A stretch of 49,268 nucleotides of DNA, from the NCBI GenBank assembly GCA_041671005.1, contig JBAZCJ010000001.1, forward strand, positions 1 to 49,268, given 5' to 3'. Within the stretch, counting starts at the first letter, position 1; each line of letters opens with the position of its first letter. The DNA is from Candidatus Woesearchaeota archaeon. GTDB lineage: Archaea; Nanobdellota; Nanobdellia; Woesearchaeales; DSVV01. The translations under genes and the position numbers were made by a program. The notes under the pieces were generated by a model. That model had not been told where the DNA came from. It searched no databases and worked only from the letters and a program-made list of their open reading frames with translations. This document shows, piece by piece, positions 1,849 through 44,862 of the stretch.

Positions 1849-1870
1849 TATGTATGTTTTTTATGTAGGT

Positions 1871-5222: not shown

Positions 5223-5271
5223 TTCGTTCATGATCCATACAAACACATTCATCGATTAGGAGGAAATTAAA

Positions 5272-6297: not shown

Positions 6298-6302
6298 AGA
6301 AA

Positions 6303-6938: not shown

Positions 6939-6948
6939 AGGTGAAAAA

Positions 6949-7854
6949 ATGAAAACAACAACAGCAGTAGGATTAGTCGGATTAACACTTGCTTTAACAG
7001 CAACATCAACAGCTGAAGCAAAAAAACATTGTACAATTCAAAAAGCATTTCCACATTCTGAAACATATGGTGTTGGAACTATTCCTATGTGTGTTTGGGG
7101 ATTACCGAAACGTACAGAAGAACCTGCATATGTTGCATTTGGGAATTCTTGGACATTAAGAAGAATTAATGAATTTTATACTTTAGGACTTTTAGATGCT
7201 ACTACATATGATGTTACAATATATAACACTAGAGAAGAAGCTGAAGAAAGTAATCCTGCATTTATTGCAAAAATAGATACAGATAAACAAAGTCATACCA
7301 GAGGACAATTAGAAATTCTTACAGAGCGTTGTGGAATTCCAGACCTGGATGTACCATTGTATACTTTTCCAACATCTATATTATTATTTACAGATATGAT
7401 GTATATACAAGAAACAATTTCTATAGAGAAAGCTAGGCCATTGTGTGGTTCTCCTGATTCTTTCCCAATAAATGCTCTTGTGAAAGGATATGTTTGGAAT
7501 CCAAAATTATTATCTCATGATCGGGATGGATTGGTTTATGTAAAATTTGATGATTTTCCAAATATGGCACAAATAAATGAATTAATTCACCCATATGGTG
7601 CTCTGGAAATTAGAGTTGATTCATCAGATGGAAAATTTGAATTTCATCCGACATTTGCAGACGCACAACTTGATGTTCGTCCTGAAGAATCAACAGTTAT
7701 TGTTGAATTTGACATACAAAACAAAGAACAAACTGGGAAAGTAACAGGAGCATGGATAAAACCATTCCTTAAAACAGAGTTTGAACCTTTAGAATTAAAT
7801 CCACACTTTTGTGGAGAATTGTACAGCCCATTATTAATGGAATATTATCACTAA
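6949..7854 (+). CDS. secreted hypothetical protein
   Basis: Signal peptide MKTTTAVGLVGLTLALTATSTAEA. GGTGA SD upstream. The track ORF (6880) has an implausible N-terminal extension. Confidence 0.6.
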   Translation: MKTTTAVGLVGLTLALTATSTAEAKKHCTIQKAFPHSETYGVGTIPMCVWGLPKRTEEPAYVAFGNSWTLRRINEFYTLGLLDATTYDVTIYNTREEAEESNPAFIAKIDTDKQSHTRGQLEILTERCGIPDLDVPLYTFPTSILLFTDMMYIQETISIEKARPLCGSPDSFPINALVKGYVWNPKLLSHDRDGLVYVKFDDFPNMAQINELIHPYGALEIRVDSSDGKFEFHPTFADAQLDVRPEESTVIVEFDIQNKEQTGKVTGAWIKPFLKTEFEPLELNPHFCGELYSPLLMEYYH

Positions 7855-7870
7855 ACCTAGATGTGAAACA

Positions 7871-8578
7871 ATGAAACCAACAACAATAACAGGATTAACA
7901 TTTTTAGTATTAAGCACAGCAGCATTTGCACAAAAACCTATAACAACTTCTGTAAGTACAACAACAGATGCACCATTGTCAATTGAAGAACAGCATCAAA
8001 TTGCTGCACAGTATTTGAAAGAACATGGAACAAAAGTAAATTATAATAATGGATTAAAAGAAAGAAAACCGTTATGGAGTTATTCATCATCTTCTCCTTC
8101 ATTTTGGTCAGTAGCTGAAGAATTAACAACATATCGACAAGTATCTGGACAGAATGCAGAGCAAGTTCCTGTAACTAGCATTTCAATCACATATGTTGAT
8201 ATGAATGAGCAGTGCAGAGGAGTAGCAATAGGAATCGGTCCTGAATGTTTCAGCAACGGAAGATTAGACAAATATGATTATGTTGAAGTTTGTCTTGATA
8301 ACCCTTCTCAAACTACATTTCGATCATGCATTGTAAATTTTGGGTTAAATGAATTTGGAGATTTAGTAAATAGAGGAGCTGGCTATGACGATAGAATTGA
8401 ACAAACAACAGTGTCACCAAACCTTAAATGGCATGGAGGAATAGGCAACCCATCTACAGATTTTACAAGAAATTTCTCAAGAGGACAAGAACTTGAAAGA
8501 GGATCTTTAACATTTACTTTGACAAAAGAATTTTATGATAAATCAATTGCAGGATTTATTGATACTTTTTATCCTTAA
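7871..8578 (+). CDS. secreted hypothetical protein
   Basis: Signal peptide MKPTTITGLTFLVLSTAAFAQ, the same MK-x-TT..GLT..L type as the neighbours. Confidence 0.6.
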   Translation: MKPTTITGLTFLVLSTAAFAQKPITTSVSTTTDAPLSIEEQHQIAAQYLKEHGTKVNYNNGLKERKPLWSYSSSSPSFWSVAEELTTYRQVSGQNAEQVPVTSISITYVDMNEQCRGVAIGIGPECFSNGRLDKYDYVEVCLDNPSQTTFRSCIVNFGLNEFGDLVNRGAGYDDRIEQTTVSPNLKWHGGIGNPSTDFTRNFSRGQELERGSLTFTLTKEFYDKSIAGFIDTFYP

Positions 8579-8599
8579 ATTCATGAGGTGTAAAATCTT

Positions 8600-9286
8600 A
8601 TGAAAAAAAGATTACACAAACCTCAAGTAACTGTTGATTTTTTTATAGCAGATCTCCATAATGATTTTATGAGTGCTTCTTTTAAAAGTTCTAATCATGG
8701 AGTATGGAAAGATATTGCTCAAAGAGTACATGCAATTTATTCTTCTTATGTAGATCTTCAATTTACTTACAGTAGAACTCCATCTTCGACTACTGCTTTA
8801 CCTAATGGTCATTTTTCAGTGGAATATAATAAATCCACAGATGCATTAGATTACGATACTATTAATCATCTTCTTGATGGTCTTTCAGATGTTCCAAAAG
8901 AGGCTAATTTAAGTACTGTCTTAACAGAAGAAATAGCAAAAGGGAACACAGAAGCTCAAGCAAAAAAAACAATTGTGTTAAGATTCTGTGAACATGTTAA
9001 TACAAAAGGGTTGTCATATCCTTCTGGACACAAATCATGGATATTTTCAACTACTCCTACAATTGATTCTCGACTAGAAGCATATTCTCATAAATTATTA
9101 GTTGAAGCATATGCTACTACAATCTCACATGAGTTAGGTCATTTGTTTGGTTTAGAGCATAATGACGCATATAACAATTTTATGAACGCTCAAGGAGTTG
9201 TTATCGATCCACCTAAATTTAAGTTTTCCCAATCTATAACCGCAGAGCAAGGAAGACAAATTCAACAATATCTCAAAACACAATAA
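8600..9286 (+). CDS. metzincin-type zinc metallopeptidase (HEXXHXXGXXH)
   Basis: HELGHLFGLEHN extended zinc-binding motif, followed by a candidate Met-turn (NNFMNA). GAGGTG SD upstream. No obvious signal peptide. Confidence 0.65.
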   Translation: MKKRLHKPQVTVDFFIADLHNDFMSASFKSSNHGVWKDIAQRVHAIYSSYVDLQFTYSRTPSSTTALPNGHFSVEYNKSTDALDYDTINHLLDGLSDVPKEANLSTVLTEEIAKGNTEAQAKKTIVLRFCEHVNTKGLSYPSGHKSWIFSTTPTIDSRLEAYSHKLLVEAYATTISHELGHLFGLEHNDAYNNFMNAQGVVIDPPKFKFSQSITAEQGRQIQQYLKTQ

Positions 9287-12764: not shown

Positions 12765-14002
12765 ATAATCGTTGCACCGACCATTGTCATTGTAACAAGA
12801 ATTAAAAGAACAGTAGCTCCCCAGCAAATAATATTGTAAAATCTGCTATTTACATGTTCACCCATAATTTTTTCTTTGTTAATTAAATACAACATAGCAA
12901 CAAGAACAAAAGGTAATGCTAACCCATTGACAACTTGTGAAATAATTATCACGGGAATAAGTGGAACATTTGGAATTAAAACAATCATTGCAGATAAAAT
13001 AACCATTGCAACAATAATAACGTAAAATTTAGGTGCTTCATGATATTTTTTATTAACACCAGATTCCCATCCAAATGCTTCACAAATATAATACGCAGTT
13101 GAAAGAGGAAGAATAAATGCACCAAAAAAAGCAGCTGCAAATAATCCTACTGCAAAAAGCATTGATGCAAGATGACCTGCAAATGGTTCAAGAGCAATTG
13201 CAGCTTGATCAGCTGTTTCAATATGTATTCCATGAGGGAATAATGTTGCTGCTGCTGCAAGCATAATAAAAAAGGAAATACCCATAGAAATAATTCCACT
13301 AATAATTATTTCCCATTTTGCATACACATATTCAGATAATTTAACCCCTTTTTCAACAATAGCAGATTGAAGATAAAATTGCATCCACGGAGTGATAGAA
13401 GTTCCTAAAATCCCAACAAGAATAATCCAATAGTTCATACCAAACTGCAGAGTAGGAGTTATCATATTCCATCCCACTGTTGGCCAATCAGGATGCGCTA
13501 AAATTCCAGACAAAATATATGTTACATAAAATAAGCAAAGTCCTAAAAAAACACGTTCTAAATATTTGTAATTAACACGAATAATTAAAAATAAAACAAT
13601 AACAGCAGAACCAAAAACAACAAGATATTTGTTTAATCCAAAAATTTGCGCTGCAGCAGTAATTCCTGCAAACTCTGCAACTGTTGTTCCAAAATTTGCA
13701 ACAAATAAACCTATCATAAGCAAAACTGTTGTTCGCAACCCTACATTTTCACGAATTAAATCTGCAAGACCTTTTCCTGTCACAACACCCATACGCGCAC
13801 ACATTTCTTGAACAATAATCAACAATAACGCAAGAGGAATAATTGTCCAAAACATACTGTATCCATAGGACGCACCTGCAACTGAAAAAGTTGTAATCCC
13901 CCCAGCATCATTATCAGCAACTGCACTAATAATCCCCGGACCAATAATTGAGAAAAAAAACATAATGTTTCGAAAACTATTTCGAAAATCAAATTTGGCC
14001 AT
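12752..14002 (-). CDS. NRAMP/SLC11-family transporter with NRMT-like (putative Mg2+) substitutions
   Basis: 11-12 TM. The helix-1 motif reads D-A-G-G (nt 13898..13909) instead of DPGN. The helix-6 motif reads SITPWMQFYLQS (TPW at 13385..13393) instead of A-x-x-MPHN-x-x-LHS. AGGAGG SD sits 6-7 nt upstream, inside the preceding gene. Confidence 0.75.
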   Translation of the reverse strand: MAKFDFRNSFRNIMFFFSIIGPGIISAVADNDAGGITTFSVAGASYGYSMFWTIIPLALLLIIVQEMCARMGVVTGKGLADLIRENVGLRTTVLLMIGLFVANFGTTVAEFAGITAAAQIFGLNKYLVVFGSAVIVLFLIIRVNYKYLERVFLGLCLFYVTYILSGILAHPDWPTVGWNMITPTLQFGMNYWIILVGILGTSITPWMQFYLQSAIVEKGVKLSEYVYAKWEIIISGIISMGISFFIMLAAAATLFPHGIHIETADQAAIALEPFAGHLASMLFAVGLFAAAFFGAFILPLSTAYYICEAFGWESGVNKKYHEAPKFYVIIVAMVILSAMIVLIPNVPLIPVIIISQVVNGLALPFVLVAMLYLINKEKIMGEHVNSRFYNIICWGATVLLILVTMTMVGATIIQMV

Positions 14003-15329
14003 TGATGCCTCCTGATTTTAATTCTAATTTAAGATCGAGCTTAGGATCTATTTTATGTTTTCTTTTTGCTCGTTTAATGATTAGTTTTCTTCTAATCCAA
14101 GATTCAGGAATCACTTTTGTGAGAATTTCATCAGCAGTAATCATGCCTTTAAGCTTACTACTTTCATCTATAACAGGGATAACATAAAAATTATATTTTT
14201 CCAATGCAATTGCAATATCTTGTTTTGTCGCAGAGAGACCTACTGCCATAGGATGTTTTTTCATACTCAATTTTAACTTTTGACGAGGAGAAGCATTAAG
14301 CAACGTACGCACAGACAAGGTACCAACAAGATGATGGTCATGGTCAATAACAAAAAGAACGTGAATTTTATCTGCAGAAGGTTTTGATTTTTTAATATAT
14401 GAAATTGCTTGTGTCGCAGTCAAGTCATCATATAATGTAAAAACATCAGTTCTCATCAGTGCTCCTGCACTATTTTCAGGATATTGATGCAACTCCTGAA
14501 TACTTTTTGCTTTTTCAGGAGACATATGCTGCAAAATAAATTTAGCTTTTTCCTGATCCATTAAAATAAGAAGGTCTGCAGCTTTATACACAGGCATGCT
14601 TTCTAGCAATTCAACAATGCGAGGCACTTTTAATCCTTTGAAAAAAGATTCCTGGACTTCAGGCTGTGCTTCTACAAGTGTTTTTGCAGCAGTTTTTTTA
14701 TCAAGTTTGTTAAAAATAATCATCTGTTCTTTAGGAGTTAATTCTCCCATTAAATCCGCAATATCTCCTGGATGCATTTCTGCAATTTTTGTATGACTTT
14801 CTTTCAAATGAAGATGTTTATTTACTTCTAATGGTTCAACAAATTTCCAGGGAATAATACGTTCAGAAGTCATTGAATAAATAAATCGCCCAAAAACGTT
14901 TTGCTTAACACCTAATCGTCTAAAAAAACTTGTTGTACCAACACAAACCCCGGTAATACATAATTCTTCGTCTACTTTATTGAGCAATAAATCATTAACT
15001 CGAACAACTTTAACACCAGCAACATCAATTATTTGTTTATCTAGTAATTCATGTGCAAGAAGATCATGTTCATGAACAAATGTAAAATCCACATTTGAAG
15101 AAATAGTATTCAAAGAAATACTAAAGATTCCTGTAACTGTATCTTGTTTAATTCCTTGGACATAATCCCACGATACTCTTTTTTTATAATTATCTTTTGC
15201 AAGAAAAACAAAATAAATTATTTTTGCTGATTCCAATCCATCAACAAAAACAAGGTCACACAGTTTTCCAAGTATTTTTTTTTCGCTATCAATAACATCC
15301 TGATTAAATAATTCTGTGTAAAATACCAT
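13989..15329 (-). CDS. soluble PRC-barrel + MgtE N-domain + tandem CBS protein (MgtE cytosolic sensor module without a pore)
   Basis: ADLLILMDQEKAKFILQHMSPEKAKSIQELHQYPENSAGALMRTDV is the MgtE_N-to-CBS junction. Two CBS motifs follow (HVLFVIDHDHHLVGTLSVRTLL, YVIPVIDESSKLKGMITADEIL). There are N-terminal PRC-like repeats and a K-rich tail, but no TM segment. It overlaps the NRAMP start by 14 nt. Confidence 0.75.
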   Translation of the reverse strand: MVFYTELFNQDVIDSEKKILGKLCDLVFVDGLESAKIIYFVFLAKDNYKKRVSWDYVQGIKQDTVTGIFSISLNTISSNVDFTFVHEHDLLAHELLDKQIIDVAGVKVVRVNDLLLNKVDEELCITGVCVGTTSFFRRLGVKQNVFGRFIYSMTSERIIPWKFVEPLEVNKHLHLKESHTKIAEMHPGDIADLMGELTPKEQMIIFNKLDKKTAAKTLVEAQPEVQESFFKGLKVPRIVELLESMPVYKAADLLILMDQEKAKFILQHMSPEKAKSIQELHQYPENSAGALMRTDVFTLYDDLTATQAISYIKKSKPSADKIHVLFVIDHDHHLVGTLSVRTLLNASPRQKLKLSMKKHPMAVGLSATKQDIAIALEKYNFYVIPVIDESSKLKGMITADEILTKVIPESWIRRKLIIKRAKRKHKIDPKLDLKLELKSGGINGQI

Positions 15330-17704: not shown

Positions 17705-17826
17705 ATCATCACCCTCTTTTTGTCATTACTATTATGAACGGATATGTATTCGCAACAACGGCAAAGTATTTAAAGTTTATCATTGTCTCGATAGAAAAGA
17801 AATTAAATTTTATCACAGGTGTACGT

Positions 17827-19536
17827 ATGGACAAAGAAATGAAACATATTGCAAAAAAATATGCATTGCAAAATGCAGTAAAATTCAACGGCACAGCAAC
17901 TATTGGCAATGTTTTGGGCAAAGTCCTTGGAGCACATCCTGAATATAAAACAGAAATTAAACAATTACAGCCAATAATCACAGCAGTTGTGAATGAAATC
18001 AATGCATTATCTCGAGATGAACAAAAATGCCAGCTGACAGTTTTTGCACCGGAATTAGTAGGAGAACATAAAAAATCTGAGAAACATGAATTAAAAGAAC
18101 TTCCTCATCATCCTTCTGGAGAAAAATTAACCTTTAGATTTGCACCATCTCCTTCTGGACCACTACACATTGGTCATGCATATGTTATTTCATTAAATTC
18201 ATTGTATGCAAAAAAGTACAAAGGCAAATTTATTCTGCGAATAGAAGATACAAACCCTGAAAATATTTATCCTGATGCCTACGATATGATTGAAACAGAC
18301 GCACGCTGGTTGACAAACAACAATATCAGTGAAGTGATTGTACAATCTGACCGAATGGAATTATATTACAAACATGCATTGCAATTATTAGAAGAAGGCC
18401 ATGCATATGTCTGCTTATGCGATTCAGAAGAATTCAGAAAACTTTCTCAAAGCATGGAAGCATGCCCTTGTAGAAATAATAATCCAGATGAAAATGTCAA
18501 ACGATGGGAACACATGCTTTCTACAACTAAACAAGGAGAAGCAGTTGTACGATTTAAAACAGATATAGCTCACAAAAATCCTGCAATGCGTGACTTTCCA
18601 ATATTGCGGATAAATGAAACGTCTCATCCGCGACAAGGAGAGAAATATAGGGTTTGGCCATTAATGAATTTTGCAGTATCAATTGATGACATGGACTTAG
18701 GAATTACACATGCATTACGAGGAAAAGATCATGCAGATAATGCAAAACGACAAGAATTCATTCACAACGCTCTTCAAGTTGACACCCCAATTCCAATTTC
18801 AGTGGGGAGAATTAATTTTACTGGGACTTCAGTCGAGGTTTCCTGCTCTAAAACCAGAGCAATGATTGAAAATAAAGAATTTGAAGGATGGGATGATATT
18901 AGATTACCATTTGTCGGAGCATTACGTCGCAGAGGATATCAACCTGAAGCATTTCAAAAATATGCAACAGAAATTGGAATTTCCACAGCAGACAAAACTG
19001 TTGACATTACAGAATTTTTTAAAACAATTAATTCTTTCAATAAAGAAATTATTGATCCAATTTCCAACAGATATTTTTTTATTAATAATCCTGTTGAAAT
19101 TAAAATAAAGAATGCACCGCATAAACATATACGAATGGATTTACATTCTGAAACAAAAAAAGGTGGAAGAACCTTGGAAACAACAGATGTATTTTATCTC
19201 ACTCAGGAAGATGTGCAGGCATTTGCATCTGAAGAAGTATATCGATTAATGGATTGTCTCAATTTCATGAAACATGGAACAGAATATGGGTTTATGAGCG
19301 AAGATTATGAAACCTACAAGAAAAATGGCAAAAAGATAATGCATTGGTTGCCTAAAAATAATAAACTCATTGATATTGAAGTGCTTATGCCTGATAACAC
19401 AATTGCAAAAGGATATGGTGAAGAAGCAGTTGCAGAATTAGAAGTAGGAGCAATTGTACAGTTTGAACGATTTGGATTTTGCAGATTAGATTCTATTGAA
19501 GGAAATCTATACAAATTTTGGTTTGGACATAAGTAA
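17827..19536 (+). CDS. gltX: glutamyl-tRNA synthetase, archaeal type
   Basis: RFAPSPSGPLHIGHA (HIGH motif), ILRIEDTNPE, VQSDRMELYY, WPLMNFAVSIDD, and archaeal N-terminus YALQNAVKFNG. The start is moved to MDKEMKH (17827); the track start 17734 adds a non-conserved extension. Confidence 0.9.
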   Translation: MDKEMKHIAKKYALQNAVKFNGTATIGNVLGKVLGAHPEYKTEIKQLQPIITAVVNEINALSRDEQKCQLTVFAPELVGEHKKSEKHELKELPHHPSGEKLTFRFAPSPSGPLHIGHAYVISLNSLYAKKYKGKFILRIEDTNPENIYPDAYDMIETDARWLTNNNISEVIVQSDRMELYYKHALQLLEEGHAYVCLCDSEEFRKLSQSMEACPCRNNNPDENVKRWEHMLSTTKQGEAVVRFKTDIAHKNPAMRDFPILRINETSHPRQGEKYRVWPLMNFAVSIDDMDLGITHALRGKDHADNAKRQEFIHNALQVDTPIPISVGRINFTGTSVEVSCSKTRAMIENKEFEGWDDIRLPFVGALRRRGYQPEAFQKYATEIGISTADKTVDITEFFKTINSFNKEIIDPISNRYFFINNPVEIKIKNAPHKHIRMDLHSETKKGGRTLETTDVFYLTQEDVQAFASEEVYRLMDCLNFMKHGTEYGFMSEDYETYKKNGKKIMHWLPKNNKLIDIEVLMPDNTIAKGYGEEAVAELEVGAIVQFERFGFCRLDSIEGNLYKFWFGHK

Positions 19537-26454: not shown

Positions 26455-27936
26455 ATGACACCAAATCAGGCACTTTTAAGAAAACCTAAGACAATATATG
26501 GATATGGTTCTACTCCCAATCCATTAAGTCAAGTTAGTTTAGAAGAGTCTATTCGTCGATTTAATGGAATTCAAGATCACTTTGAAGAATTTTACAGAAC
26601 AGTTGAAGAGTCTAAACTTTTAAACGCAATCCTTGGCTTAACAACGAATGAATCATTTCTTGGAATGACTCTTGAAGAAGCACAAAGAGATGCAAGTTTT
26701 CGAAATTCAATGGCTGGATTTCTTCATGGAGAACATACAAGCTATCGTTCTATTTCAGATAACCTTGGTTGGTTCGGATTTTATGCTTCTTTTTTTAGTT
26801 CAACACCAATTCCAGAAAATTTACAAGTTATAGAACGAGGAAGAAAATCTTTAGAACTTCTTACAGCAATAACTGAAACAGATTCTAAATTTTACGAACA
26901 TGTTTTGAAAGGGGTTTATGCTGCAGAATTACAAAAACAAGGACTTCTTGCTGCAGAGAATATTTTTATTTCAGTTGCATCTGTTCCTGAAGTAGGACAT
27001 GAAATTCTTAAACCTCAAATGGTAAAACCTGGATCAGATACTATTCGTTATAGGCGCCAAGAATTTTATAATGGTCTTCCAGGAGATCGATCGCGATTTC
27101 CTACTTATATTGTACCAGAGGGAACACGTATTCGTGTTGCTGTAAAAAATACTAGTACAGACAAAGTATATCTTATTGTCCCAACAATAAATGGAATTCC
27201 TTTTCATTTACAATGTGCAGTTTTTAAGTATGATAATTTTAAAGATACAACGTTTCCACTTGAAGGAGTAGAATCTGTGAAACACTATCTTAAACCTGGA
27301 GAAGAACTTATTTTAGATCATTTTCAAGTAGATCGAACATCTATTGGGGATAATCCAAAAAGTTTTACTTCATCAGATATAGGAGATTATGGTTCACATG
27401 GATCTTTAGAAGAGCTTGCATTTGTTGCAGAACCATTAATTTTAGAAAAATATTCCGTATCTGATCTTGAATTATTAGAACGTGTTCCTGAATCAATGAG
27501 AAGACAAATTATTTATGAATCTAATTTAGGATACCTCAAAACCTGGTTAAGACAATTAAAAGAAGCAAAAAAAACTGAAATTTATGTCAGCCGTCCAGTT
27601 CTTGCTGGAAAAACAGAATCTTCAGAATTAGATAATCCATTCCTTGGATCGTTAGGATTTACTATAATCAGTGTTGAAAGACCTCCTGTTAAAGCTGTGC
27701 ATACAATGGCATTTGAAGGTATATATAGAGAAAGTGGAGCACATAGTTTTAGTGGAGCAACTAAAGGTATGGGAGGAGGTATTGCCGGTCTTGCAACATT
27801 TAGTGGAGGAAGCGACTTAGGAGCTATTAGAGCAGATCGCTTTAATTTTGATTATGACTCCGCAATACATAGAGTTATTGGGTATTATCCTGTTAATTTA
27901 ATGTCAACATCAGGAATTATGCGTGTTGTTCAGTAA
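26455..27936 (+). CDS. orphan protein (493 aa) with Gly-rich C-terminal segment
   Basis: Long uninterrupted ORF. No motif recognised. C-terminus reads GATKGMGGGIAGLATFSGGSDLG. Confidence 0.55.
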   Translation: MTPNQALLRKPKTIYGYGSTPNPLSQVSLEESIRRFNGIQDHFEEFYRTVEESKLLNAILGLTTNESFLGMTLEEAQRDASFRNSMAGFLHGEHTSYRSISDNLGWFGFYASFFSSTPIPENLQVIERGRKSLELLTAITETDSKFYEHVLKGVYAAELQKQGLLAAENIFISVASVPEVGHEILKPQMVKPGSDTIRYRRQEFYNGLPGDRSRFPTYIVPEGTRIRVAVKNTSTDKVYLIVPTINGIPFHLQCAVFKYDNFKDTTFPLEGVESVKHYLKPGEELILDHFQVDRTSIGDNPKSFTSSDIGDYGSHGSLEELAFVAEPLILEKYSVSDLELLERVPESMRRQIIYESNLGYLKTWLRQLKEAKKTEIYVSRPVLAGKTESSELDNPFLGSLGFTIISVERPPVKAVHTMAFEGIYRESGAHSFSGATKGMGGGIAGLATFSGGSDLGAIRADRFNFDYDSAIHRVIGYYPVNLMSTSGIMRVVQ

Positions 27937-29507: not shown

Positions 29508-31367
29508 ATGGCAGATTATGAAACAACAAAAGACATTCAAATTGATCCTAAAGTTATCAATCAAGTCATTGGCCAAGATGAAGCTGTTGAAATTATTAAA
29601 AAAGCTGGAGACCAACGAAGACATGTCCTTCTTATAGGAGAACCAGGAACAGGAAAATCTCTTCTTGGCATGGCACTTGCGGAATTATTGCCAAAAGAAA
29701 AACTTGTTGATATTGTTGCATTCCCTAATCCTCATGATGAAAATCAACCTTTAATTAGAACAATGCCAGGTGGCTCTGGCAGAGAACTTGTAATGAGAGC
29801 ACGCATTGAAAGTGCATCAATGTTCAAAAATCAAAATTTAATATTCCTCATTATTATTTTTATTATTTCACTTATTCCATTCTGGCTTTGGAAAACTGGA
29901 AAAATTTCTGACATTATTTTTGCTGCATCTATTATTACCACTTCAGTTGCATTCATCGGCATTGTTTTTGCTATGAATCTTGGCAAACGTATGGGTGGTG
30001 AAAAAATACAAGTACCAAAAGTCATTGTTGATAATTTTGATAAAAAAAATGCACCATTTTTTGATGCAACAGGAGCACATGCAGGAGCATTATTAGGGGA
30101 TGTTCTTCACGATCCATTCCAATCTGGAGGATTAGGAACACCTGCACATGAACGTATTATTGCCGGCATGATTCATAAAGCACATATGGGTGTCTTATTT
30201 GTTGATGAAATAGCAACACTCCAACCACATACACAGCAAGAATTACTTTCAGCATTGCAAGAAGGGCGTTATCCTATTACAGGCCAATCTGAACGAAGTG
30301 CTGGTGCAATGGTTAGAACAGAATTTGTCCCTTGTAATTTTATTCTTGTTGCTGCAGGGAACATGGAAACAATGAAGCAAATGCATCCTGCATTGCGAAG
30401 CAGAATCAGAGGTTATGGGTATGAAGTATATATGAAAGAAACTATGCCTGACAATGAAGAAAATAGATTCAAATTAGCACGATTTGTTGCACAAGAAGTT
30501 GTAAAAGATAAAAAAATACCTCACTTTAACAAAGAAGCTGTAGAAGCAATCATTGAAGAAGCAAAACGCAGAGCAAACAGAAAAGGACATTTGACATTAC
30601 GATTACGTGATTTAGGCGGGATTATCCGAGCAGCTGGGGATTTAGCACTTGAAGAAAAAGCAAAATTTGTTGAACGTAAACATGTTCTTGCTGCTAAAAA
30701 ACTTGCACGAACTCTTGAACAACAACTTGCCGATAAATATATTGAACGAAAAAAAGAATATGAAATTATTATCACAGAAGGAGAAAAAGTTGGCAGAGTC
30801 AACGGTCTTGCTGTTATTGGCGGTGGCGATGCATATTCTGGAATCATTCTTCCTATAGAAGCAGAAGTAACTCCTGGCGGTAAGCGAGGAGAATTTATTG
30901 CAACAGGAAAACTTGGAGAAATTGCAAAAGAAGCAGTAAAGAATGTTTCAGCTATTATTAAAAAATATTTTGGAGAAGATATTAAAGAAAAATATGATAT
31001 TTATGTTCAATTTTTACAAACATACGAAGGTGTTGAAGGGGATTCAGCAAGTATTGCTGTTGCAGTCGCAATAATTTCTGCATTGAAAGATGTCCCTATT
31101 AAACAAGAATATGCAATGACTGGAAGTCTTTCTGTTAGAGGAGAAGCACTGCCAATCGGCGGAGTTACTGCAAAAGTTGAAGCAGCAATTGATGCAGGTA
31201 TCAAAAAAGTTATTGTTCCAAAATCAAACATGCAGGACATTGTTTTAAACGAAAAACAGCTTGGACAAATAAAAATAATTCCAGTAGAAACATTAGATGA
31301 AGTTCTTAAAGAAGTCTTAAACTGGAAAGGTAAAGAAGCAATCTTGAAAAAGATATTAAAGAAATAA
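29508..31367 (+). CDS. lonB: archaeal membrane-bound Lon protease (LonB)
   Basis: Walker A GEPGTGKS. Two TM helices are inserted in the AAA+ module ([16 protein letters not shown] / [21 protein letters not shown]). Walker B is LFVDEI. The catalytic Ser is in EGDSASIA and the Lys in [10 protein letters not shown]. Confidence 0.92.
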
Positions 31368-31776: not shown

Positions 31777-32502
31777 TCAAAAAAATAACAACACTAACCC
31801 TGTTAAGACTATCATATTTCCAAAATCAGCAACAGAGGTTGTAATCGGAATAAGAAAATTGTTTGGATCTTTTTCTTTTTTAAAATAATATAGTCCTGCA
31901 TAAATTGAAAGAACACATAACAATGCAACGATAATTAATACATCCAACAAAGTAATAACCAATATCTTCGCTGCGACAACAGGATTTACTGAATGTTCAA
32001 CAAAATATGTTACTCCAAGAGCTGTACATGCACTGAGGACTGCTGTAATTGATGCAATGATAAATATTTGAGTTAACAACTGCTGTACAATAAGATTTTT
32101 CCACCATAATTTTGTTATTTCCCTTTTATGGAGCATTGTTGAAAATCGTGAAGACACAATAGTTCCATAATCCCCAATCATATCATTTAATGTTGGAAGC
32201 AAAATAACTAACGGCATGATAGAAATAAATATTGTTTTTACTTCTTCTAATGCAAAACCTCCTAATGAACTAACAAGAGATGCTAATATAATTATTTTTA
32301 TACTTTCTTTAAGAATTGTTTTAGGAACATTACTATGCGCACCATATTCTTTAATATAAAACAAAGTTTTCTTGGAAATCTTATGAATATGATGAATATG
32401 GTGAATGAGAGGATGGTGTTTATGACGAGCAATTAGTTGAAGTTTTTTTAATTTTTTTTTCAGAGTATCTCTTTTGATTATCTTGTGAAAATGAAAGTTC
32501 AT
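31777..32502 (-). CDS. MgtE-type transmembrane (pore) domain protein with His-rich N-terminus
   Basis: DPNNFLIPITTSVADFGNMIVL is the MgtE TM5-type motif. The N-terminus contains HKHHPLIHHIHHIHK. There is no MgtE_N or CBS region. ATGA overlap with the upstream gene. Confidence 0.7.
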   Translation of the reverse strand: MNFHFHKIIKRDTLKKKLKKLQLIARHKHHPLIHHIHHIHKISKKTLFYIKEYGAHSNVPKTILKESIKIIILASLVSSLGGFALEEVKTIFISIMPLVILLPTLNDMIGDYGTIVSSRFSTMLHKREITKLWWKNLIVQQLLTQIFIIASITAVLSACTALGVTYFVEHSVNPVVAAKILVITLLDVLIIVALLCVLSIYAGLYYFKKEKDPNNFLIPITTSVADFGNMIVLTGLVLLFF

Positions 32503-33050
32503 ATGACCACCACCAATGCAAGTAAAATAGAAATAATACTAATGATATCTCCGGATGACGTTAAAAATGGGCCCATAATATTATTTGGATCATGACCTTT
32601 TTTGAACAAGTAAAATGTTGCAAAAAGAGTAAGAGGAATTTCTATTGCATTAGCAAGAATTCCTGCAAATAAAACAACAACAATAAGTTTTGGTGTGTAT
32701 ACTTGAAGAAAAAAATAATTGACAAAAAAAACAATAAGTCCTAATAGCAACGATACAATACCACTTAACACAAAAGATGCAATAACATTGCCTTGAATTA
32801 TTTTTGTTCTTGTAGGATTTGACTTCGCATGGATTACCCCTAAAAATAACCCTGAACTTAATCGTGATGCCAAAGGAGCAGTAATATTTGCACGCATTTC
32901 TAAAAATCCTGGCAACAAAATAAGCATACTAGGAATAAGAAGAATTTTTTCTGTATAAATTGCAAGCACTGTTCCTGCAATAAGACCCCCTGCAACTGAA
33001 ACTATTTGCGAAAAAAAGATTTCTTTAAAATTCATATCAAATATTTTCAT
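32499..33050 (-). CDS. MgtE-type transmembrane (pore) domain protein
   Basis: DPNNIMGPFLTSSGDIISIISILL, five hydrophobic helices, no cytosolic domains. Confidence 0.7.
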   Translation of the reverse strand: MKIFDMNFKEIFFSQIVSVAGGLIAGTVLAIYTEKILLIPSMLILLPGFLEMRANITAPLASRLSSGLFLGVIHAKSNPTRTKIIQGNVIASFVLSGIVSLLLGLIVFFVNYFFLQVYTPKLIVVVLFAGILANAIEIPLTLFATFYLFKKGHDPNNIMGPFLTSSGDIISIISILLALVVVI

Positions 33051-33147
33051 TCGATATAAATTTATGAAGAAGATTCCTTATAATACTTTTGAAAAAAATC
33101 CACTCTTTTTGTCTTCTTACTCCCCCTTACAATGAAATGTTATTATT

Positions 33148-33240: not shown

Positions 33241-34230
33241 TTATAAACCGTGATTTAACTCATCTGCAATAGACTTTAATTTATCTAAAGAACCTACTAA
33301 AAGCTGCCTTACTCGTTCTTTACTAATGGGGGAGTCTAAACTAGTTCCTATATCTTTTAAGTATTGTTCACAAAAATAACGTTTATAAATAATCTCAATA
33401 ACACGGTTACTAAGCCCGGCTTTTGAAAGTAAAGTATGAATTTCTACATAGTCCATATCAACTTTAGAACTTGGATCCGGAAGATGATCATGTAATGTAT
33501 GACTTGAATCATCAACATCTATCGGTGCATCAAGAGAAGCAAATGAGGGTTTACTTCCTAAAATTTTTCTGCATTTATCAACATCCATTCCTTCTTGTTC
33601 TGCAAATTCTTCTAATGTTGCATCTGGATTATAACCTCTCATTAACTCTAACTTTTTTTCTGTACTCCAATGAGCATACCATTTATGTCTTGTCCACCTA
33701 GAATAAACCCCATTTGCTGCAGATTGAATAGTGCGATACATTTTATCATACACATATCCACTTAATTGAGTCCCATACGCAGGATCAAATTGCTTAATTG
33801 CTAACAATAATCCAATACTTCCTTCTTGCATTAAATCAGAAAGATCACACTCAGGTAAATTTAATATATGAAGAAAACGAGAAGCTATTGTACGCCTAAA
33901 TCCTTCATATTTCTTGGCAAGTTCACTAGGCGTAGCATGAAAATCAACACCATACAAATGAACAACATCAGTTTTAAGATAATATAGTCTTCCATTAATT
34001 TCATGTTGAGGGTTTGAACGAACACGATTTCGAATAATATCATTCAAACAAAAGTTTAAAGCATCTTGAACAGGAATAACTTCAATAAGAGGAGCTGAAG
34101 GCATTTCTAAAAGATCTCCAAAAATAGCTGCAAGATCAGAATCTAAAAAAGATAAACTTTCTGAAGGAACAAAGGCAGGATCAGGAACTGTTTTTACTAT
34201 ATCTGAAAGGGATATCACATCAATCACCAA
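33241..34230 (-). CDS. sigma-70 family RNA polymerase sigma factor homologue (regions 2, 3 and 4 recognisable)
   Basis: Region 2: DLMQEGSIGLLLAIKQFDPAYGTQLSGYVYDKMYRTIQ. Region 3: TLEEFAEQEGMDVDKCRKILGSKPSFASLDAPID. Region 4: LKDIGTSLDSPISKERVRQLLVGSLDKLK. Confidence 0.8.
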   Translation of the reverse strand: MVIDVISLSDIVKTVPDPAFVPSESLSFLDSDLAAIFGDLLEMPSAPLIEVIPVQDALNFCLNDIIRNRVRSNPQHEINGRLYYLKTDVVHLYGVDFHATPSELAKKYEGFRRTIASRFLHILNLPECDLSDLMQEGSIGLLLAIKQFDPAYGTQLSGYVYDKMYRTIQSAANGVYSRWTRHKWYAHWSTEKKLELMRGYNPDATLEEFAEQEGMDVDKCRKILGSKPSFASLDAPIDVDDSSHTLHDHLPDPSSKVDMDYVEIHTLLSKAGLSNRVIEIIYKRYFCEQYLKDIGTSLDSPISKERVRQLLVGSLDKLKSIADELNHGL

Positions 34231-35282
34231 CGAGCCCCATTAAATCCTTTATCCACTAAATATATTAAACATTGATTTGCAACTTCCCTTTCTAAAAAAA
34301 ACTGTTTTCCATGCCCGGTTTCATGAGGTTGTACTCTTCTTCCTTCTTGAGTATACCTCATATTTCCTGCAGTAGTTTTTTGTATATGATTTCTTAACTT
34401 TCCTTGAAAGTTTCTTGCCTCTTGCACAGATAGTGATTCTTGTGTAAATCGTGCAAAAATATTTCCAAAAGGAATTCTTTCTCCTTCTGCTTCTGAAAAC
34501 AAACGAACAGATTTTTCATCATAAGAATATGCACTACCAGAATTTCTAATTTCATTAAGAGGAATATATTTTTGAATATCAACAAGAGTTGGTGTAGGTA
34601 AAACACGTTCAGATACGCTGAAAAAACTAGCTCCATTAAATCCTTTATCCACTAAATACCTTAAACATTGGTTTGCAACCTCTCTGTTTAATAAATATTT
34701 TTTTCCGTGCCCTGTTTCATGGATTTGTACTCTTGTTCCATCTTGAGTATACCTAAGATATCCTGCAGTAGTTCGTTGCATCTTATTTCTTAGGCTACAT
34801 TGAAATCTTCTTATTTCTTGTCCACTTAACGATTCAGGTGTAAATCGTGCAAAAATTTCTCCATAAAATATTCTTTCTCCTTCTGCTTCTGAAAACAAAT
34901 TGACAGATCTTCCATTGTGAGAATATACTTCATCAGAATCTCTAAGTTCATTAAGAGGAGTATAGTTTTGAATATCAACCAAATTTGCAGGTAAAACAAG
35001 TTCAGTTACATTGAAAAAACTAACTCCTATAATTTTAAATGGTTTACTTGGTTCAGAAGAATATTCAAAATGAAGACTCCCTTTACTTTCGTCTATTGGG
35101 AATACTGCTATTCTTACAGAATTAAGATAAATCTGGATATGGGTTCCATGAATTACACAATCTAAAATCCCATTTTCCAATCCTCTTAATCCATAATGTT
35201 CAAGAGGAACAAGCCTATATCTTTTCGTTGTTGGATCAACAAGAGGAACTTCAACTGTTTTAACAATAGCATCAATACTCAT
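34224..35282 (-). CDS. unknown protein: N-terminal domain of about 95 aa plus two tandem copies of a 132-aa domain (HETGHGK motif)
   Basis: Internal repeat ...LVDIQxYxPLNExRxS...LFSEAEGERI..G.IFARFT.ESLS.QE.R.FQ..LRN..Q.TTAG..RYTQ.G.RVQ.HETGHGK..L.REVANQCL.YLVDKGFNGA occurs twice. The stop overlaps the sigma-like start by 7 nt. Confidence 0.65.
   Translation of the reverse strand: MSIDAIVKTVEVPLVDPTTKRYRLVPLEHYGLRGLENGILDCVIHGTHIQIYLNSVRIAVFPIDESKGSLHFEYSSEPSKPFKIIGVSFFNVTELVLPANLVDIQNYTPLNELRDSDEVYSHNGRSVNLFSEAEGERIFYGEIFARFTPESLSGQEIRRFQCSLRNKMQRTTAGYLRYTQDGTRVQIHETGHGKKYLLNREVANQCLRYLVDKGFNGASFFSVSERVLPTPTLVDIQKYIPLNEIRNSGSAYSYDEKSVRLFSEAEGERIPFGNIFARFTQESLSVQEARNFQGKLRNHIQKTTAGNMRYTQEGRRVQPHETGHGKQFFLEREVANQCLIYLVDKGFNGARW
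34235..35022 (-). repeat. intragenic tandem duplication, 2 x 396 nt, diverged copies that are still clearly alignable by eye
   Basis: Copies start at 34235 (ccccattaaatcctttatccactaaat) and 34631 (ctccattaaatcctttatccactaaat). The period is exactly 396 nt, so it is in frame. Confidence 0.8.
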
Positions 35283-35369
35283 ACATGAAGAATCTGAATT
35301 TCTTTTTTAAATGTTATTCTCATTTAGAAGTAAAAGAAGAGTAAATTTTAATGAACTGCCCCCTAAACA

Positions 35370-36427: not shown

Positions 36428-36604
36428 ATGGCAAAACACATACTTTATTGCTCAACATGTCAACGATACACAATGCAGCCAGTCTGCACTTGTGGAGAGA
36501 AAACTGCTGAACGAAAACCTGCAAAATTTTCTCCTGAAGATAAATACGCACAATATCGCAGACAGGTAAAACAAGAACAACGCAAAAAAGAGGGATTAGT
36601 ATGA
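36428..36604 (+). CDS. nop10: H/ACA RNP protein Nop10 (58 aa; below the ORF-track cutoff)
   Basis: Own translation: MAKHILYCSTCQRYTMQPVCTCGEKTAERKPAKFSPEDKYAQYRRQVKQEQRKKEGLV. It has a zinc ribbon plus the KFSPEDKY..YRR signature. The GTATGA overlap links it to the next gene. Confidence 0.88.
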   Translation: MAKHILYCSTCQRYTMQPVCTCGEKTAERKPAKFSPEDKYAQYRRQVKQEQRKKEGLV

Positions 36605-39884: not shown

Positions 39885-42092
39885 TTACCCATATCTATAA
39901 TCAACTTCAACTTGGATAGGATATTCTTTTGTTCCCCAAGGCATCATAAACGTAGTCATACCAGAAATCTGCTTGCCATCTTCTGATCTATTGGCAACAA
40001 TACCAATAGGTGTATATCCCATCCCCGAGGTTGAACTAACAGATATCTCTGAACTACTGGGAGCATTGCCTGGTGCAAATAATCCTTCAAACTCACAGCG
40101 TTTATACTCCCTAATTCTTTTGTCAATTCCTGTAAAGTCTCTTTTAGAAATCTCCATATCAACATCATACATCCCAAACTCATCATCACTTCCTGATAAA
40201 CGAATAGGCGCATCACTATCATAAAAATTATCTCCATCAATTTCCCACTGATTATTTTGAGTTCCTTTCAATGTATTCCACAAAATTGTACTTTGCGGTC
40301 CACACTCTTCTGGATATTTTGTTGTTTGTTTTTCTTCATAATTATAATTTAACATTTGGGTTTTAACATAAAATTCATCCCACTCTTCATCATAGATTAA
40401 GGTATCATAAGAGATCATGCTGCTTTGCTGTTCATAATTCTGTGTTAATCCTCCACCAAAATCGAAATCTGTTGTAAATGACCATGAAAATTTTGTATAC
40501 CCATGCCATTCTGGATCACATTCTCCTCGGGTGTCAACAACAAAATCTTTTGTATACGTTTCTCTAGTTTGAGAGTTAGAATAAATTAAAATAACTGCTT
40601 TGACATTTTCTTCAGATCGTGTTTTGCAGAACTTTCGTTCATCAATCGTTGTCCAATCTTCAAGATGCCAAGTATTGCCAATTTTAATCAAGGCTTGACG
40701 TGCATGTTTTTCATCAGACGCAATTTTAAAATTAAAAATAACTTTTTTCAAATTGTCATTAAAAATATAATAATTGTATTTCATAGATAATGGCTGAAGT
40801 TCAACAATAGCTGGAAATTCTCCAGACTCTTCTATATAATTCTCAACAAATGCATCCCCATTTGGACTCATAGAATATGATACGAGTGTTGGTCGTGGAA
40901 AATTAGGAAGGTCTGTATATTGTTCAAATGGTTCTTTGTTCCAATTCCATAATGCATACTCTGCAAAAAAGGTATCAAAAAATTCAAACGAAGTTGCGGC
41001 AGATTCATCATCCATTGTTTTTGCATTAAACAATGGTTCTTTTACCATCTCAAGATTTCCTGTTGATTGAGTCAGGAAAAGATACCACATATATGATTCA
41101 TATTCATGACTCCCATCCCAAAAAATCATTTTTTTTTCTGTATGCTGAAAATATCCTGGTAAGTTTGCCCACTCCATGTTATAATCTGGGTACACATAAT
41201 GCTCTGACCATTCTGCTGTTGCTTCCATAAGCCACATTGTTGGATTTCCTTCATATTTCAAAGGAATTGCAAACTGAAAACAATGAAATAATTCGTGTGC
41301 TGCAGTTGATTGTGTTTTCTTTTGACTTTTATTTGGTGCAACACTCATAACACAACGAGTAAAATTGTTTGTTGTAATCATATCTGCTTCACCACTGCCA
41401 TTGACAATTGGTTTAAGATACAGATAAGACATTTCTGCAGGTCTAACACCTAACAAGGATTCAAACATTGGATACGCTAAAAGAATAGATTCATTAACCC
41501 ATTGCGCCCGCTGTTCATTGCCGGCTTTGTAAAAAATAGTTACTCGCCTATCTGGCTCTTCAGAAATAACTACTTGAAACGATTTCCATATGTCTGCTGC
41601 TTGAACTGATGGAATTATTGAGAATGATTCAAGGACTTCATTTTGTTTTTCATCACTGTAAAAAAAACTTTTAGGATCATCTGGAAGAACGTAGAAAGGT
41701 TCTAGTTTTTCTTTTGTCTGTTCGTCTAACTCATCCCAATGATGATACATCCACCATCTACTTTCCATCGTAAAATCTGTTTCAGGTGCTTCTCCTTGAT
41801 ATTCAGAAGGTAATATATCTGGAGCGTAAGATGCTAATAATGTATACAATACTGCATCTGGTTTTTCTATATTCCCTGCATTCAAGTCTTCATTGATTTT
41901 AGAAATAGAATAAACTGGCAACGGTTCTGCTATTGACAGATTTGCAATTTCTTTGAGATCTTCATCGATGTTTAATGATTGAATTAATAGTCGTGTTGCT
42001 TCTTGATCTGCACTTGTTTTTTCAATAGTTTCTTCTTCACCACAGGACATGAGTAAAAGAAAAAGAGCGAAAACAAGGAAAAATTTGTTCAT
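39885..42092 (-). CDS. large lipoprotein zinc metallopeptidase (HEXXH + downstream Glu, gluzincin-like)
   Basis: MNKFFLVFALFLLLMSCG lipobox. AAHELFHCFQF, then LMEATAEWSE about 25 aa downstream. Start moved to 42092. Confidence 0.6.
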   Translation of the reverse strand: MNKFFLVFALFLLLMSCGEEETIEKTSADQEATRLLIQSLNIDEDLKEIANLSIAEPLPVYSISKINEDLNAGNIEKPDAVLYTLLASYAPDILPSEYQGEAPETDFTMESRWWMYHHWDELDEQTKEKLEPFYVLPDDPKSFFYSDEKQNEVLESFSIIPSVQAADIWKSFQVVISEEPDRRVTIFYKAGNEQRAQWVNESILLAYPMFESLLGVRPAEMSYLYLKPIVNGSGEADMITTNNFTRCVMSVAPNKSQKKTQSTAAHELFHCFQFAIPLKYEGNPTMWLMEATAEWSEHYVYPDYNMEWANLPGYFQHTEKKMIFWDGSHEYESYMWYLFLTQSTGNLEMVKEPLFNAKTMDDESAATSFEFFDTFFAEYALWNWNKEPFEQYTDLPNFPRPTLVSYSMSPNGDAFVENYIEESGEFPAIVELQPLSMKYNYYIFNDNLKKVIFNFKIASDEKHARQALIKIGNTWHLEDWTTIDERKFCKTRSEENVKAVILIYSNSQTRETYTKDFVVDTRGECDPEWHGYTKFSWSFTTDFDFGGGLTQNYEQQSSMISYDTLIYDEEWDEFYVKTQMLNYNYEEKQTTKYPEECGPQSTILWNTLKGTQNNQWEIDGDNFYDSDAPIRLSGSDDEFGMYDVDMEISKRDFTGIDKRIREYKRCEFEGLFAPGNAPSSSEISVSSTSGMGYTPIGIVANRSEDGKQISGMTTFMMPWGTKEYPIQVEVDYRYG

Positions 42093-42135
42093 AAAGAAAA
42101 TGAAATGAAAGAAGAATATAAAGATTTGCAATAAG

Positions 42136-44010: not shown

Positions 44011-44862
44011 ATGATAATAGTTAAGCGCAAAATTGGAAATGAAGAATTTTATTACATCCAATATACTTACAGAAAAAACAAGAAACCAGTTACAATAAGT
44101 AAATATTTAGGGAAAAAATTACCTTCTCAGCAAGAAATTGAAAATTTGAAAAAAAAGCTTCTCTTCGAACAAAAACAAGAACTCTACAAAAAGCTAGAGT
44201 CAGTAAAAGAAAAGTTTCAAAAAAACTGGCAAAAAATCCCTGAATCAGTAAAAGAACAGCAGCTTCATGAAATTGCAATTGCATTTACATATAACACTAA
44301 TGCAATTGAAGGATCAACAATAACACTTGAAGATACACGAGAAATTATTGAACAGCGAATTGCTCCAAAAAAACCTATGCGAGATATTAAAGAAACTGAA
44401 AATCACGCAAAAGTCTTTTTGCAAATGCTCAAAAAACCTGAACAAATAACGGTTTCACTTATTTTACATTGGCATAAAGAATTATTTGAAGAAACAAAAC
44501 TAGAAATAGCAGGAGTGTTTAGAGATTATCTTGTCAGAGTTGGGGATTACAGAGCACCTGATTGGCAAGATGTTGAAAAATTAATGAATGAATTTATTAA
44601 AAAAATTGAAAAAGAATATGAAAATCCTGTTGAACATGCAGCACGAATACATTATCATTTTGAAAAAATACATCCTTTTGGAGATGGAAATGGAAGAGTA
44701 GGAAGATTATTAATGAATCATATTCTTTGGCATGCGAGGTATCCTATGCTTATTATAGAATACAAAAAAAGAGCATCATATTACAAAGCACTGAAAGACG
44801 AAGAACGATTTGTTAAATATTTTATTCGAAGGTATTTAGCAGTACATCAATCATCACTTTGA
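44011..44862 (+). CDS. Fic/DOC-family protein (class II, with N-terminal inhibitory motif)
   Basis: Fic motif HPFGDGNGRVGRLL. Inhibitory helix motif (S/T)xxxE(G/N) = TNAIEG upstream of the core. Confidence 0.85.
   Translation: MIIVKRKIGNEEFYYIQYTYRKNKKPVTISKYLGKKLPSQQEIENLKKKLLFEQKQELYKKLESVKEKFQKNWQKIPESVKEQQLHEIAIAFTYNTNAIEGSTITLEDTREIIEQRIAPKKPMRDIKETENHAKVFLQMLKKPEQITVSLILHWHKELFEETKLEIAGVFRDYLVRVGDYRAPDWQDVEKLMNEFIKKIEKEYENPVEHAARIHYHFEKIHPFGDGNGRVGRLLMNHILWHARYPMLIIEYKKRASYYKALKDEERFVKYFIRRYLAVHQSSL

Follow-up and report, generated by a model that had tools for sequence, protein, structure and literature searches.

Sigma factors define transcription initiation in bacteria, and we know of no use that archaea would have for them. 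In the rsbW-sigB and spoIIAB-sigF pairs of Bacillus, the anti-sigma gene lies directly upstream of the sigma gene and overlaps it. Sigma-70 genes (fam00359) have been reported in DPANN archaea, where they were described as "particularly prevalent in Woesearchaeota" (Castelle et al. 2021, Front Microbiol, PMC8204110). The same study ruled out mis-binning, identified no anti-sigma factor, and left the control mechanism unclear (PMC8204110). In the literature we found nothing on archaeal sigma-70 genes beyond that report, and the presence of sigma factors in DPANN has been an unexplained curiosity since 2021. Here we describe a sigma-70-like gene and the orphan partner gene directly upstream of it on a 49,268-bp NCBI contig labeled Candidatus Woesearchaeota. 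This whole stretch is referred to as the window, and the two genes as the cassette. A preliminary description of the window had implied that a sigma factor in an archaeon was novel. That was not borne out, because such genes had already been reported (PMC8204110) and NCBI annotates the protein as a "sigma factor." What is new is a divergent clade, a conserved orphan partner, and strain-variable cassette behavior.

A divergent sigma-70 homologue

The sigma-70-like gene (33241..34230, minus strand, as are all cassette features below) encodes 329 amino acids (aa) from a TTG start. The NCBI record of the product (P0001, "MAG: sigma factor [Candidatus Woesearchaeota archaeon]," where MAG stands for metagenome-assembled genome) has 325 aa, with a GTG start at 34218, four codons after the TTG. 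Both open reading frames (ORFs) of the cassette and the peptides DLMQEGSIGLLLAIKQFDPAYGTQLSGYVYDKMYRTIQ and ISKERVRQLLVGSLDKLK were found as the preliminary description had given them. That description had also recognized sigma-70 regions 2, 3, and 4 in the product, and a profile check bore this out for regions 2 and 4. Two Pfam domains scored above threshold, Sigma70_r2 (PF04542; 28.8 bits against a cutoff of 24; residues 106 to 162) and Sigma70_r4 (PF04545; 26.5 bits against 24.1; residues 272 to 319). Sigma70_r3 (PF04539) narrowly missed its cutoff (21.1 bits against 25.3), and full-length NCBIfam sigma models aligned through region 3. These models began at residues 103 to 130 and ended at about residue 322. 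The best of them was RpoS (E = 2.4e-19; residues 129 to 322), at 69.9 bits against an equivalog cutoff of 378.7, and RpoD_Cterm matched at E = 1.4e-14. No NCBIfam subgroup cutoff was reached (FliA/WhiG, 46.9 against 189.6; SigBFG, 46 against 234), and the sigma70-ECF superfamily model also stayed below its cutoff (40.3 against 42.9). There was no profile match to region 1.2. The top-scoring profile was PHROG 351 (sigma factor), at 97 bits and E = 1.8e-27. A PADLOC match to MzaA over region 2.2, at 15 bits, was not meaningful.

The AlphaFold model, based on a 66-sequence alignment, had predicted local distance difference test (pLDDT) values above 90 for residues 100 to 173 (region 2) and 260 to 327 (region 4), and values of 83 to 86 for the predicted region 3 helices. 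When the model was compared with the PDB by Foldseek, the best 50 matches listed were all bacterial sigma factors (probability 1.00), and the fold matched sigmaA, sigma70, and sigmaS within holoenzyme structures. The Pfam, NCBIfam, and PHROG matches and the confidently predicted folds of regions 2 and 4 therefore establish the 329-aa ORF as a genuine, intact, and very divergent sigma-70-family homologue.

The protein begins with an acidic N-terminal extension (33931..34230; aa 1 to 100; pI 4.4) that was modeled with a pLDDT below 56. Region 2 (33745..33915; aa 106 to 162) contains DLMQEGSIGL, which fits the region 2.2 motif DLxQEGxxGL, in region 2.1-2.2, the segment best conserved with respect to bacterial sigmas. 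D131, L132, G136, and G139 are invariant or nearly invariant in the 66-sequence sigma alignment. DLMQEGSIG is the same in P0061, the best canonical match, which is a bacterial sigma from a context like that of the candidate phyla radiation (CPR). In bacterial sigmas, region 2.1-2.2 is the binding surface for the β′ clamp helices. Region 3 (33499..33633; aa 200 to 244) is followed by the region 4 helix-turn-helix (33274..33417; aa 272 to 319), with SKERVRQ in region 4.2. This motif aligns with the canonical TRERV/IRQ; we take the −35-recognition residues to be R584, E585, R588, and Q589 in Escherichia coli numbering.

Region 2 lacks the FSTYAxxWIRQ segment. In bacterial sigmas, the tryptophans of FSTYAxxW wedge open the −10 element. 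In the window protein, the ATWW positions of canonical sigmas fall in a four-residue gap (D and K in an ungapped comparison), and the STYAxxW/W-dyad segment is missing. From the aromatic and −10-recognition set, which we presume to be Y430, W433, W434, Q437, and T440 in E. coli numbering, only the equivalent of Y430 is kept. The RTIRxPVH segment (regions 2.4/3.0) is also gone, replaced by a W..W...K.EL-type motif (W..W..KLEL).

When 1.84 billion representatives were searched exhaustively with HMMER, 3,974 matched, none above 37% identity. Three proteins among the four top matches (P0059, P0060, and P0062) resemble the window protein in lacking FSTYAxxWIRQ and in having a W..W...K.EL motif in place of RTIRxPVH. 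We surveyed the melting motif in the 150 best-scoring representatives. STYAxxW was missing outright only in the window protein and these three; the segment was partly divergent in P0066 and P0075, and it was kept in all others in which region 2 could be located. The clade, as used here, is made up of four 50%-identity clusters within this sample. Region 4.2 is poorly kept in P0059 (ISQSKASM) and P0062. The neighbors of the P0059 and P0062 genes are archaeal (EF1A, S17e, Alba, and an archaeal-type ProRS), and the 90%-identity cluster of the ProRS contains a Woesearchaeota MAG. Scans of GTDB, IMG/VR, and JGI contigs for the clade (alignment A6) found canonical bacterial sigmas only. Species representatives of GTDB, scanned by pattern, did not yield the clade either, and the sigma-like protein had only self-matches at high identity among 5.8 billion proteins.

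Two further relatives lie outside this group. P0064 (L014:662-2302) is an archaeal sigma-like protein of 546 aa, and its gene adjoins one with GatB_N, GAD, and GatB_Yqey domains, a GatE-type combination. Its N-terminal extension of about 300 aa seems to be internally duplicated. The N-terminal extension of the window protein had no significant similarity to these repeats (E = 0.03, over a ..NG..YYLK motif), and the partner protein had no similarity to P0064. The second relative, P0075 (L007:1630-2358), has 242 aa and lies on a contig with 52% GC. The genes there are short, overlapping, on the same strand, and without Pfam matches, a phage-like layout unlike that of the Woesearchaeal loci.

The orphan partner and its conservation in a second lineage

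The partner gene (34224..35282) encodes an orphan protein of 352 aa. It consists of a β-rich N-domain (nucleotides [nt] 35028 to 35282; aa 1 to 85) and two α/β repeats of about 131 aa each (repeat 1, nt 34635 to 35027, aa 86 to 216; repeat 2, nt 34227 to 34634, aa 217 to 352). The preliminary description had noticed a 132-aa repeat, and we recovered it with a period of 396 nt (132 codons) at 81% nucleotide and about 66% aa identity. The repeats are a tandem duplication that is recent (dS, 0.29) and relaxed (dN/dS, 0.71). The partner had no Pfam match above threshold, the best being spurious DUF matches of at most 17.9 bits, and nothing significant in NCBIfam, PHROG, PADLOC, or the PDB sequences. 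A tblastn search against GenBank phages gave only noise (E of at least 3), and no match came up when GTDB genomes, IMG/VR, and JGI metagenome contigs were scanned by pattern. In 5.8 billion proteins, searched with both the single sequence and a profile, the only homologues were the partner itself and P0220, which make up two clusters. We had also considered a resemblance of the repeat to the phage DNA-binding domains Bro-N/KilA-N, suggested by the pattern [FY]x[FY]...VR...GE...F..I, and regard it as unsupported because hmmscan against Pfam at E ≤ 1 gave no such match.

The two genes are tightly coupled with either start codon. With the TTG start at 34230, they overlap by 7 nt, as first described. 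With the GTG start of the NCBI record, there is a 5-nt gap after the partner TGA, and the start lies just downstream of GGTGA, a Shine-Dalgarno-like motif. Upstream of the partner, the TATA-like sequence TTTAAAAAA (35303..35311) has its first base 29 nt upstream of the ATG at 35282 and its center about 25 nt upstream. Directly upstream of it is the purine-rich GAATAAC (35313..35319), which resembles a transcription factor B recognition element and, by the archaeal promoter consensus, may act as one. The preliminary description had proposed an archaeal-style TATA box and a leaderless operon, and the geometry agrees with this. Among 53 window genes, 11, the partner gene included, have a TATA octamer whose first base lies 27 to 31 nt ahead of the start codon, and 29 nt is the modal position, so the cassette follows the genome's own leaderless geometry. 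Few window genes have a Shine-Dalgarno motif. Given this scarcity and the octamer spacing, many window transcripts are probably leaderless. Downstream, a run of seven T residues (33092..33098), 143 nt past the sigma stop and ahead of the MgtE-like gene's own promoter, is a candidate archaeal oligo-T terminator.

The preliminary description had suggested looking in relatives for the sigma-like gene together with the repeat gene. We found this pairing once, in a second Woesearchaeal lineage, at 27 to 31% identity. There, P0060 (335 aa) matches the window sigma-like protein from residue 21 to the end, N-terminal extension included (27% identity; E = 1e-21), and P0220 (251 aa) matches the partner at 31% identity (E = 4e-31) and contains the N-domain and one repeat unit. 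The P0220 gene precedes the P0060 gene and overlaps it by 26 nt, compared with 7 nt in the window. The promoter of this sister cassette reads GAATAA(Y)-N-TTTAAAAA, with GAATAA(Y) at L009 793-799. The center of its box lies about 26.5 nt before the partner ATG, so that the distance is 25 to 27 nt at both loci. The flanking MoxR protein of the sister lineage belongs to a cluster of at least 90% identity with Woesearchaeota or Nanoarchaeota proteins. The acidic N-terminal extension is present in the window protein and in P0060, both of which have the partner, and absent from P0059 and P0062, at whose loci there is no partner-like ORF.

The conservation of the pair bears on the possibility that the gene, acquired horizontally from a bacterium or a virus, is now a functionless, drifting relic. 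A relic might well be this divergent, scoring far below all equivalog cutoffs, and be this patchily distributed. Its dN/dS would also be fairly high. Between two alleles of the sister lineage, the sigma-like gene had a dN/dS of 0.57, compared with 0.32 in the partner and 0.33 in a neighboring canonical sigma gene, each value resting on about 25 to 35 substitutions, and the partner repeats gave the still higher value noted above. However, all of these values are below 1, both reading frames run uninterrupted for 329 and 352 aa, and regions 2 and 4 have confidently predicted folds. Architecture, gene order, overlap, and promoter geometry have all been preserved at 27 to 31% identity. We therefore regard a relic as quite improbable.

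Strain-variable slots and the setting in the window

In the sister lineage, the backbone consists of MoxR, HTH_10, methyltransferase, and HIT genes, tRNA-Glu(TTC), a variable slot, and then a divergently oriented canonical sigma gene (456 aa). Contig L008 carries the sigma-like gene, and its flanks match those of contig L022 at 99.8% identity over 3,887 bp. On one side, homology between the alleles ends directly after the common TTTAAAAA box. The other breakpoint is at or just past the 3′ end of tRNA-Glu, at 8 nt in comparison with the L009-type allele and about 98 nt in comparison with the L008/L004-type allele. Because the break comes just after the common TATA box, the same promoter would drive different cargo in different strains. 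No integrase was found at the sister-lineage variable slots.

Several features of L022 deserve mention. An unrelated 286-aa gene without a Pfam or PADLOC match (L022:3948-4808, minus strand) occupies the promoter-to-tRNA-Glu slot of the cassette. In L022, the tRNA-Glu 3′ end is also repeated directly, though imperfectly, in or at the edges of the variable slot (3784-3800 with 4783-4799, 15 of 17 nt; 3775-3790 with 3869-3884, 13 of 16 nt). These short, att-like repeats suggest scars of past site-specific integration, although they could be due to chance. The canonical sigma gene (L022:4900-6270; partial at L009:1-738) encodes 456 aa with FSTYATHWIRQ. Pfam regions 2, 3, and 4 are above threshold in it, and region 1.2 is weak (19.3 bits against a cutoff of 22). 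Both strain types retain this gene (92% aa identity), which is oriented divergently from the variable slot, with a separate TATA box about 28 nt upstream. Its product is only distantly related to the window protein, with region 2.2 alone in common.

The partner-less members of the clade show a similar pattern. Their sigma-like genes (L001:6001-6954 and L006:979-2040) have no detectable DNA homology and encode proteins that are 28% identical, whereas the flanking proteins are 74% (SFM1-like), 79% (ThyX), and 88% (ProRS) identical. Synteny is conserved as SFM1-like ... tRNA-Leu(CAG)-ThyX-ProRS, and the stop codon of the sigma-like gene touches or overlaps the 3′ end of the tRNA-Leu. What had been called downstream as "genes" of 38 and 47 aa is the tRNA-Leu itself. 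L006 has, in addition, a tRNA-Val just upstream. The clade thus occupies variable, often tRNA-adjacent slots and evolves far faster than its surroundings.

In the window, archaeal marker genes flank the cassette on both sides, as the preliminary description had reported. The S27e gene starts at 35426, divergent to the partner gene and 143 nt from its ATG, and is followed by the genes for aIF2α, a Nop10-like zinc-ribbon ORF (36428-36604; 58 aa), and PAC2. LonB with an archaeal LID domain lies at 29508-31367. The archaeal GluRS of that description is a class-Ic Glu/Gln-type tRNA synthetase at 17734-19536. GC content is flat across the cassette region. GC content at third codon positions (GC3) is 0.13 to 0.16 in the sigma-like and partner genes, like that of their neighbors, and the codon-usage fit of the two genes ranks 16th and 41st among 51 window genes, which is mid-range. 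The sigma-like gene is therefore native to the Woesearchaeota chromosome, with host-like composition and codon usage. It is also not a stray fragment, as had been argued, given an intact ORF on an archaeal contig that is coupled to the repeat protein. An Rfam scan near the cassette and in the window had a best E-value of 1.8, with every match far below its family gathering score.

Because the contig is a metagenome assembly, we considered an assembly chimera or bacterial contamination, and we give this explanation almost no credence. GC content, GC3, and codon usage do not distinguish the cassette from its flanking genes, and an archaeal-style promoter stands at the genome's own spacing. Relatives also lie among archaeal genes in three other independent assemblies: beside EF1A/S17e/Alba (L001), an archaeal-type ProRS (L001 and L006), a GatE-type set (L014), and HTH_10 (L008/L022). 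Mis-binning has been excluded for Woesearchaeal sigmas (Castelle et al. 2021, PMC8204110).

The same host-like codon usage and promoter could instead point to a stable, vertically inherited regulator, that is, to an ancient bacterial gene domesticated by Woesearchaeota rather than an accessory one. The variability at the other loci would then have no bearing on this one. Housekeeping genes stand on both sides of the cassette. There is no tRNA in the 49-kb window, no flanking or att-like repeat around the cassette, and no integrase or phage gene around it. Sigma-70 genes are, moreover, prevalent in Woesearchaeota (Castelle et al. 2021, PMC8204110). Against this stand the extreme rarity of the gene, with high-identity matches only to itself in 5.8 billion proteins and none in the GTDB representative scans, and its relatives, which are strain-variable or hyper-divergent within conserved synteny. 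The recent and relaxed duplication within the partner gene also speaks against long stability. We judge a domesticated core regulator to be unlikely.

Some other genes of the window are worth recording. MgtE seems to be split: 31777-33050 holds two tandem MgtE membrane-domain genes (183 and 241 aa), and a separate gene for the cytoplasmic domains, with MgtE_N, CBS, and a PRC-barrel (13989-15329), about 17 kb away, adjoins an Nramp transporter gene. At 4539-9286, six ORFs of 214 to 341 aa follow one another on the same strand, none with a Pfam match at E ≤ 1e-4. Three large ORFs are likewise unannotated: 1850-3547 (565 aa), 26455-27936 (493 aa), and 39885-42131 (748 aa). A Fic/DOC-domain protein of 283 aa is encoded at 44011-44862. 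At 3531-4433 is the gene for a 300-aa protein whose sole recognizable part is an N-terminal MazE/AbrB-type antitoxin-like domain.

Proposed role and comparison with known systems

We propose that the cassette is an accessory, fast-evolving module encoding a sigma-derived DNA-binding regulator that is gated by its partner, rather than a promoter-melting initiation factor. We put the probability of this reading at roughly 0.4. The sigma-like protein would be a sequence-specific DNA-binding regulator that acts through the helix-turn-helix domains of sigma4 (and sigma3). Since it lacks the conserved aromatic motif that melts the −10 element, it has probably ceased to serve as an initiation factor that opens promoters. 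The partner, translated along with it, would bind the sigma-like protein, probably via the N-terminal extension, since the extension occurs only where the partner is present. Binding would gate the activity, much as in the RsbW-SigB anti-sigma/sigma pair, with a partner of a new fold. The preliminary description had offered three roles: a repurposed DNA-binding regulator, a relic of a mobile element or virus, and a factor acting on the RNA polymerase (RNAP) of a bacterial partner. The data favor a blend of the repurposed DNA-binding regulator and an accessory, mobile-element-like cassette.

Several points weigh against this proposal. The retention of region 2.1-2.2 argues that contact with RNAP may persist. 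Group 3 and 4 sigmas without the W-dyad still initiate transcription, so that loss of the W-dyad is no proof of lost sigma function. The partner has none of the known anti-sigma domains HATPase_c (RsbW/SpoIIAB type), zf-HC2, RskA, and FlgM. As to its fold, the AlphaFold2 model, from a four-row alignment, has a pLDDT of 52 and no Foldseek match at E < 1, and is unusable. A neighbor-joining tree recovered the clade in about 52% of bootstraps, with at most six taxa and with P0064 or P0075 often joining it; because this support is weak, the clade rests mainly on shared motifs. The dN/dS values come from small numbers of substitutions, and the pair is known from two lineages only. As for the accessory nature of the cassette, the window has neither a tRNA nor an att-like repeat. 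Exact look-ups of its S27e and MgtE-like neighbors gave no match and hence no comparison strain for the slot, and variability is demonstrated only in the sister lineages.

The retained regions also fit a working sigma-type RNAP subunit that docks by region 2.2 on the clamp coiled-coil, with the partner as its anti-sigma factor or chaperone. Docking would redirect transcription. The target could be the archaeon's own RNAP, where the protein would compete with TFE or Spt4/5 for the Rpo1N/A′ clamp. Alternatively, it could be a bacterial RNAP, in a host or neighbor, reached by an exported effector. Region 2.1-2.2 is the most conserved part of the protein, the −35-reading residues of region 4.2 are kept, and the full architecture of regions 2, 3, and 4 has survived across 27% identity. 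Rapid, strain-variable evolution is, moreover, the pattern of effector or conflict genes. However, the protein lacks both RTIRxPVH and the melting segment STYAxxW, and region 4.2 is much weaker in other clade members, as in P0059. Sigma-70-like promoter sites are not in excess in the window (89, against 86.8 ± 9.6 expected). We saw no sign of bacterial RNAP genes, of a secretion signal, or of a secretion system, and we know of no sigma docking on archaeal RNAP. On balance, a working sigma subunit seems about as unlikely as a domesticated core regulator. That the protein docks on the RNAP clamp by region 2.2, in its own cell or in a bacterial host, and that the partner represents a new anti-sigma class or a chaperone, is slightly more doubtful still.

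Whether the protein is a partner-gated DNA-binding regulator, as we favor, or a docking subunit, the locus gives the first concrete, testable handle on the role of DPANN sigma-like genes. It provides a candidate cognate partner, where Castelle et al. found no anti-sigma factor. It also indicates that at least one sigma-like clade acts as a fast-evolving, strain-variable cassette and not as a core regulator. The signature of the protein, with core-binding and −35-reading residues kept and the melting motif lost, predicts DNA binding without promoter opening. If the protein docked on its own RNAP, the archaeon would gain sigma-type control of transcription beside TBP, TFB, and TFE; if it docked on the RNAP of a bacterial host, it would be a fast-evolving symbiont effector. 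Either biochemical outcome would show a bacterial initiation factor reused inside an archaeal cell, or against a neighbor.

The closest full-length profile matches are the bacterial group 1 and 2 sigmas (the C-terminal part of RpoD, and RpoS), with which the window protein has in common the region 2.1-2.2 motif, region 3 (at a profile score under the cutoff), the region 4.2 helix-turn-helix, and the predicted fold. It differs from them in its identity of at most about 37%, in having no region 1.2 match, no equivalents of what we take to be W433 and W434, and no RTIRxPVH, and in a host that has an archaeal transcription system. Phage sigma factors (PHROG 351) gave the top profile score and are likewise accessory, patchy, and fast-evolving, and P0075 lies in a phage-like gene run. 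In contrast, the surroundings of the window gene contain no phage genes, integrase, or att sites. Scans of IMG/VR did not turn up the clade, and nothing in GenBank phages matched the partner significantly. We know of no use that an archaeal virus would have for a sigma factor.

With the anti-sigma operons rsbW-sigB and spoIIAB-sigF, the cassette, as known from its sequence, shares the partner-first order, the start/stop overlap, and the maintenance of the pair across lineages. The window partner differs in that no HATPase_c, zf-HC2, RskA, or FlgM-type domain is found in it. With the DPANN sigmas reported earlier, the window gene has in common that a bacterial-type sigma-70 stands on a contig with archaeal markers, that no anti-sigma factor is recognizable, and that no mechanism is known by which it would work beside TBP, TFB, and TFE (PMC8204110). 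It stands apart from them in three respects: it belongs to a sub-clade that has lost STYAxxW and carries a W..W..KLEL-type segment, it has an acidic N-terminal extension and a conserved, coupled orphan partner, and its relatives occupy strain-variable, tRNA-adjacent slots.

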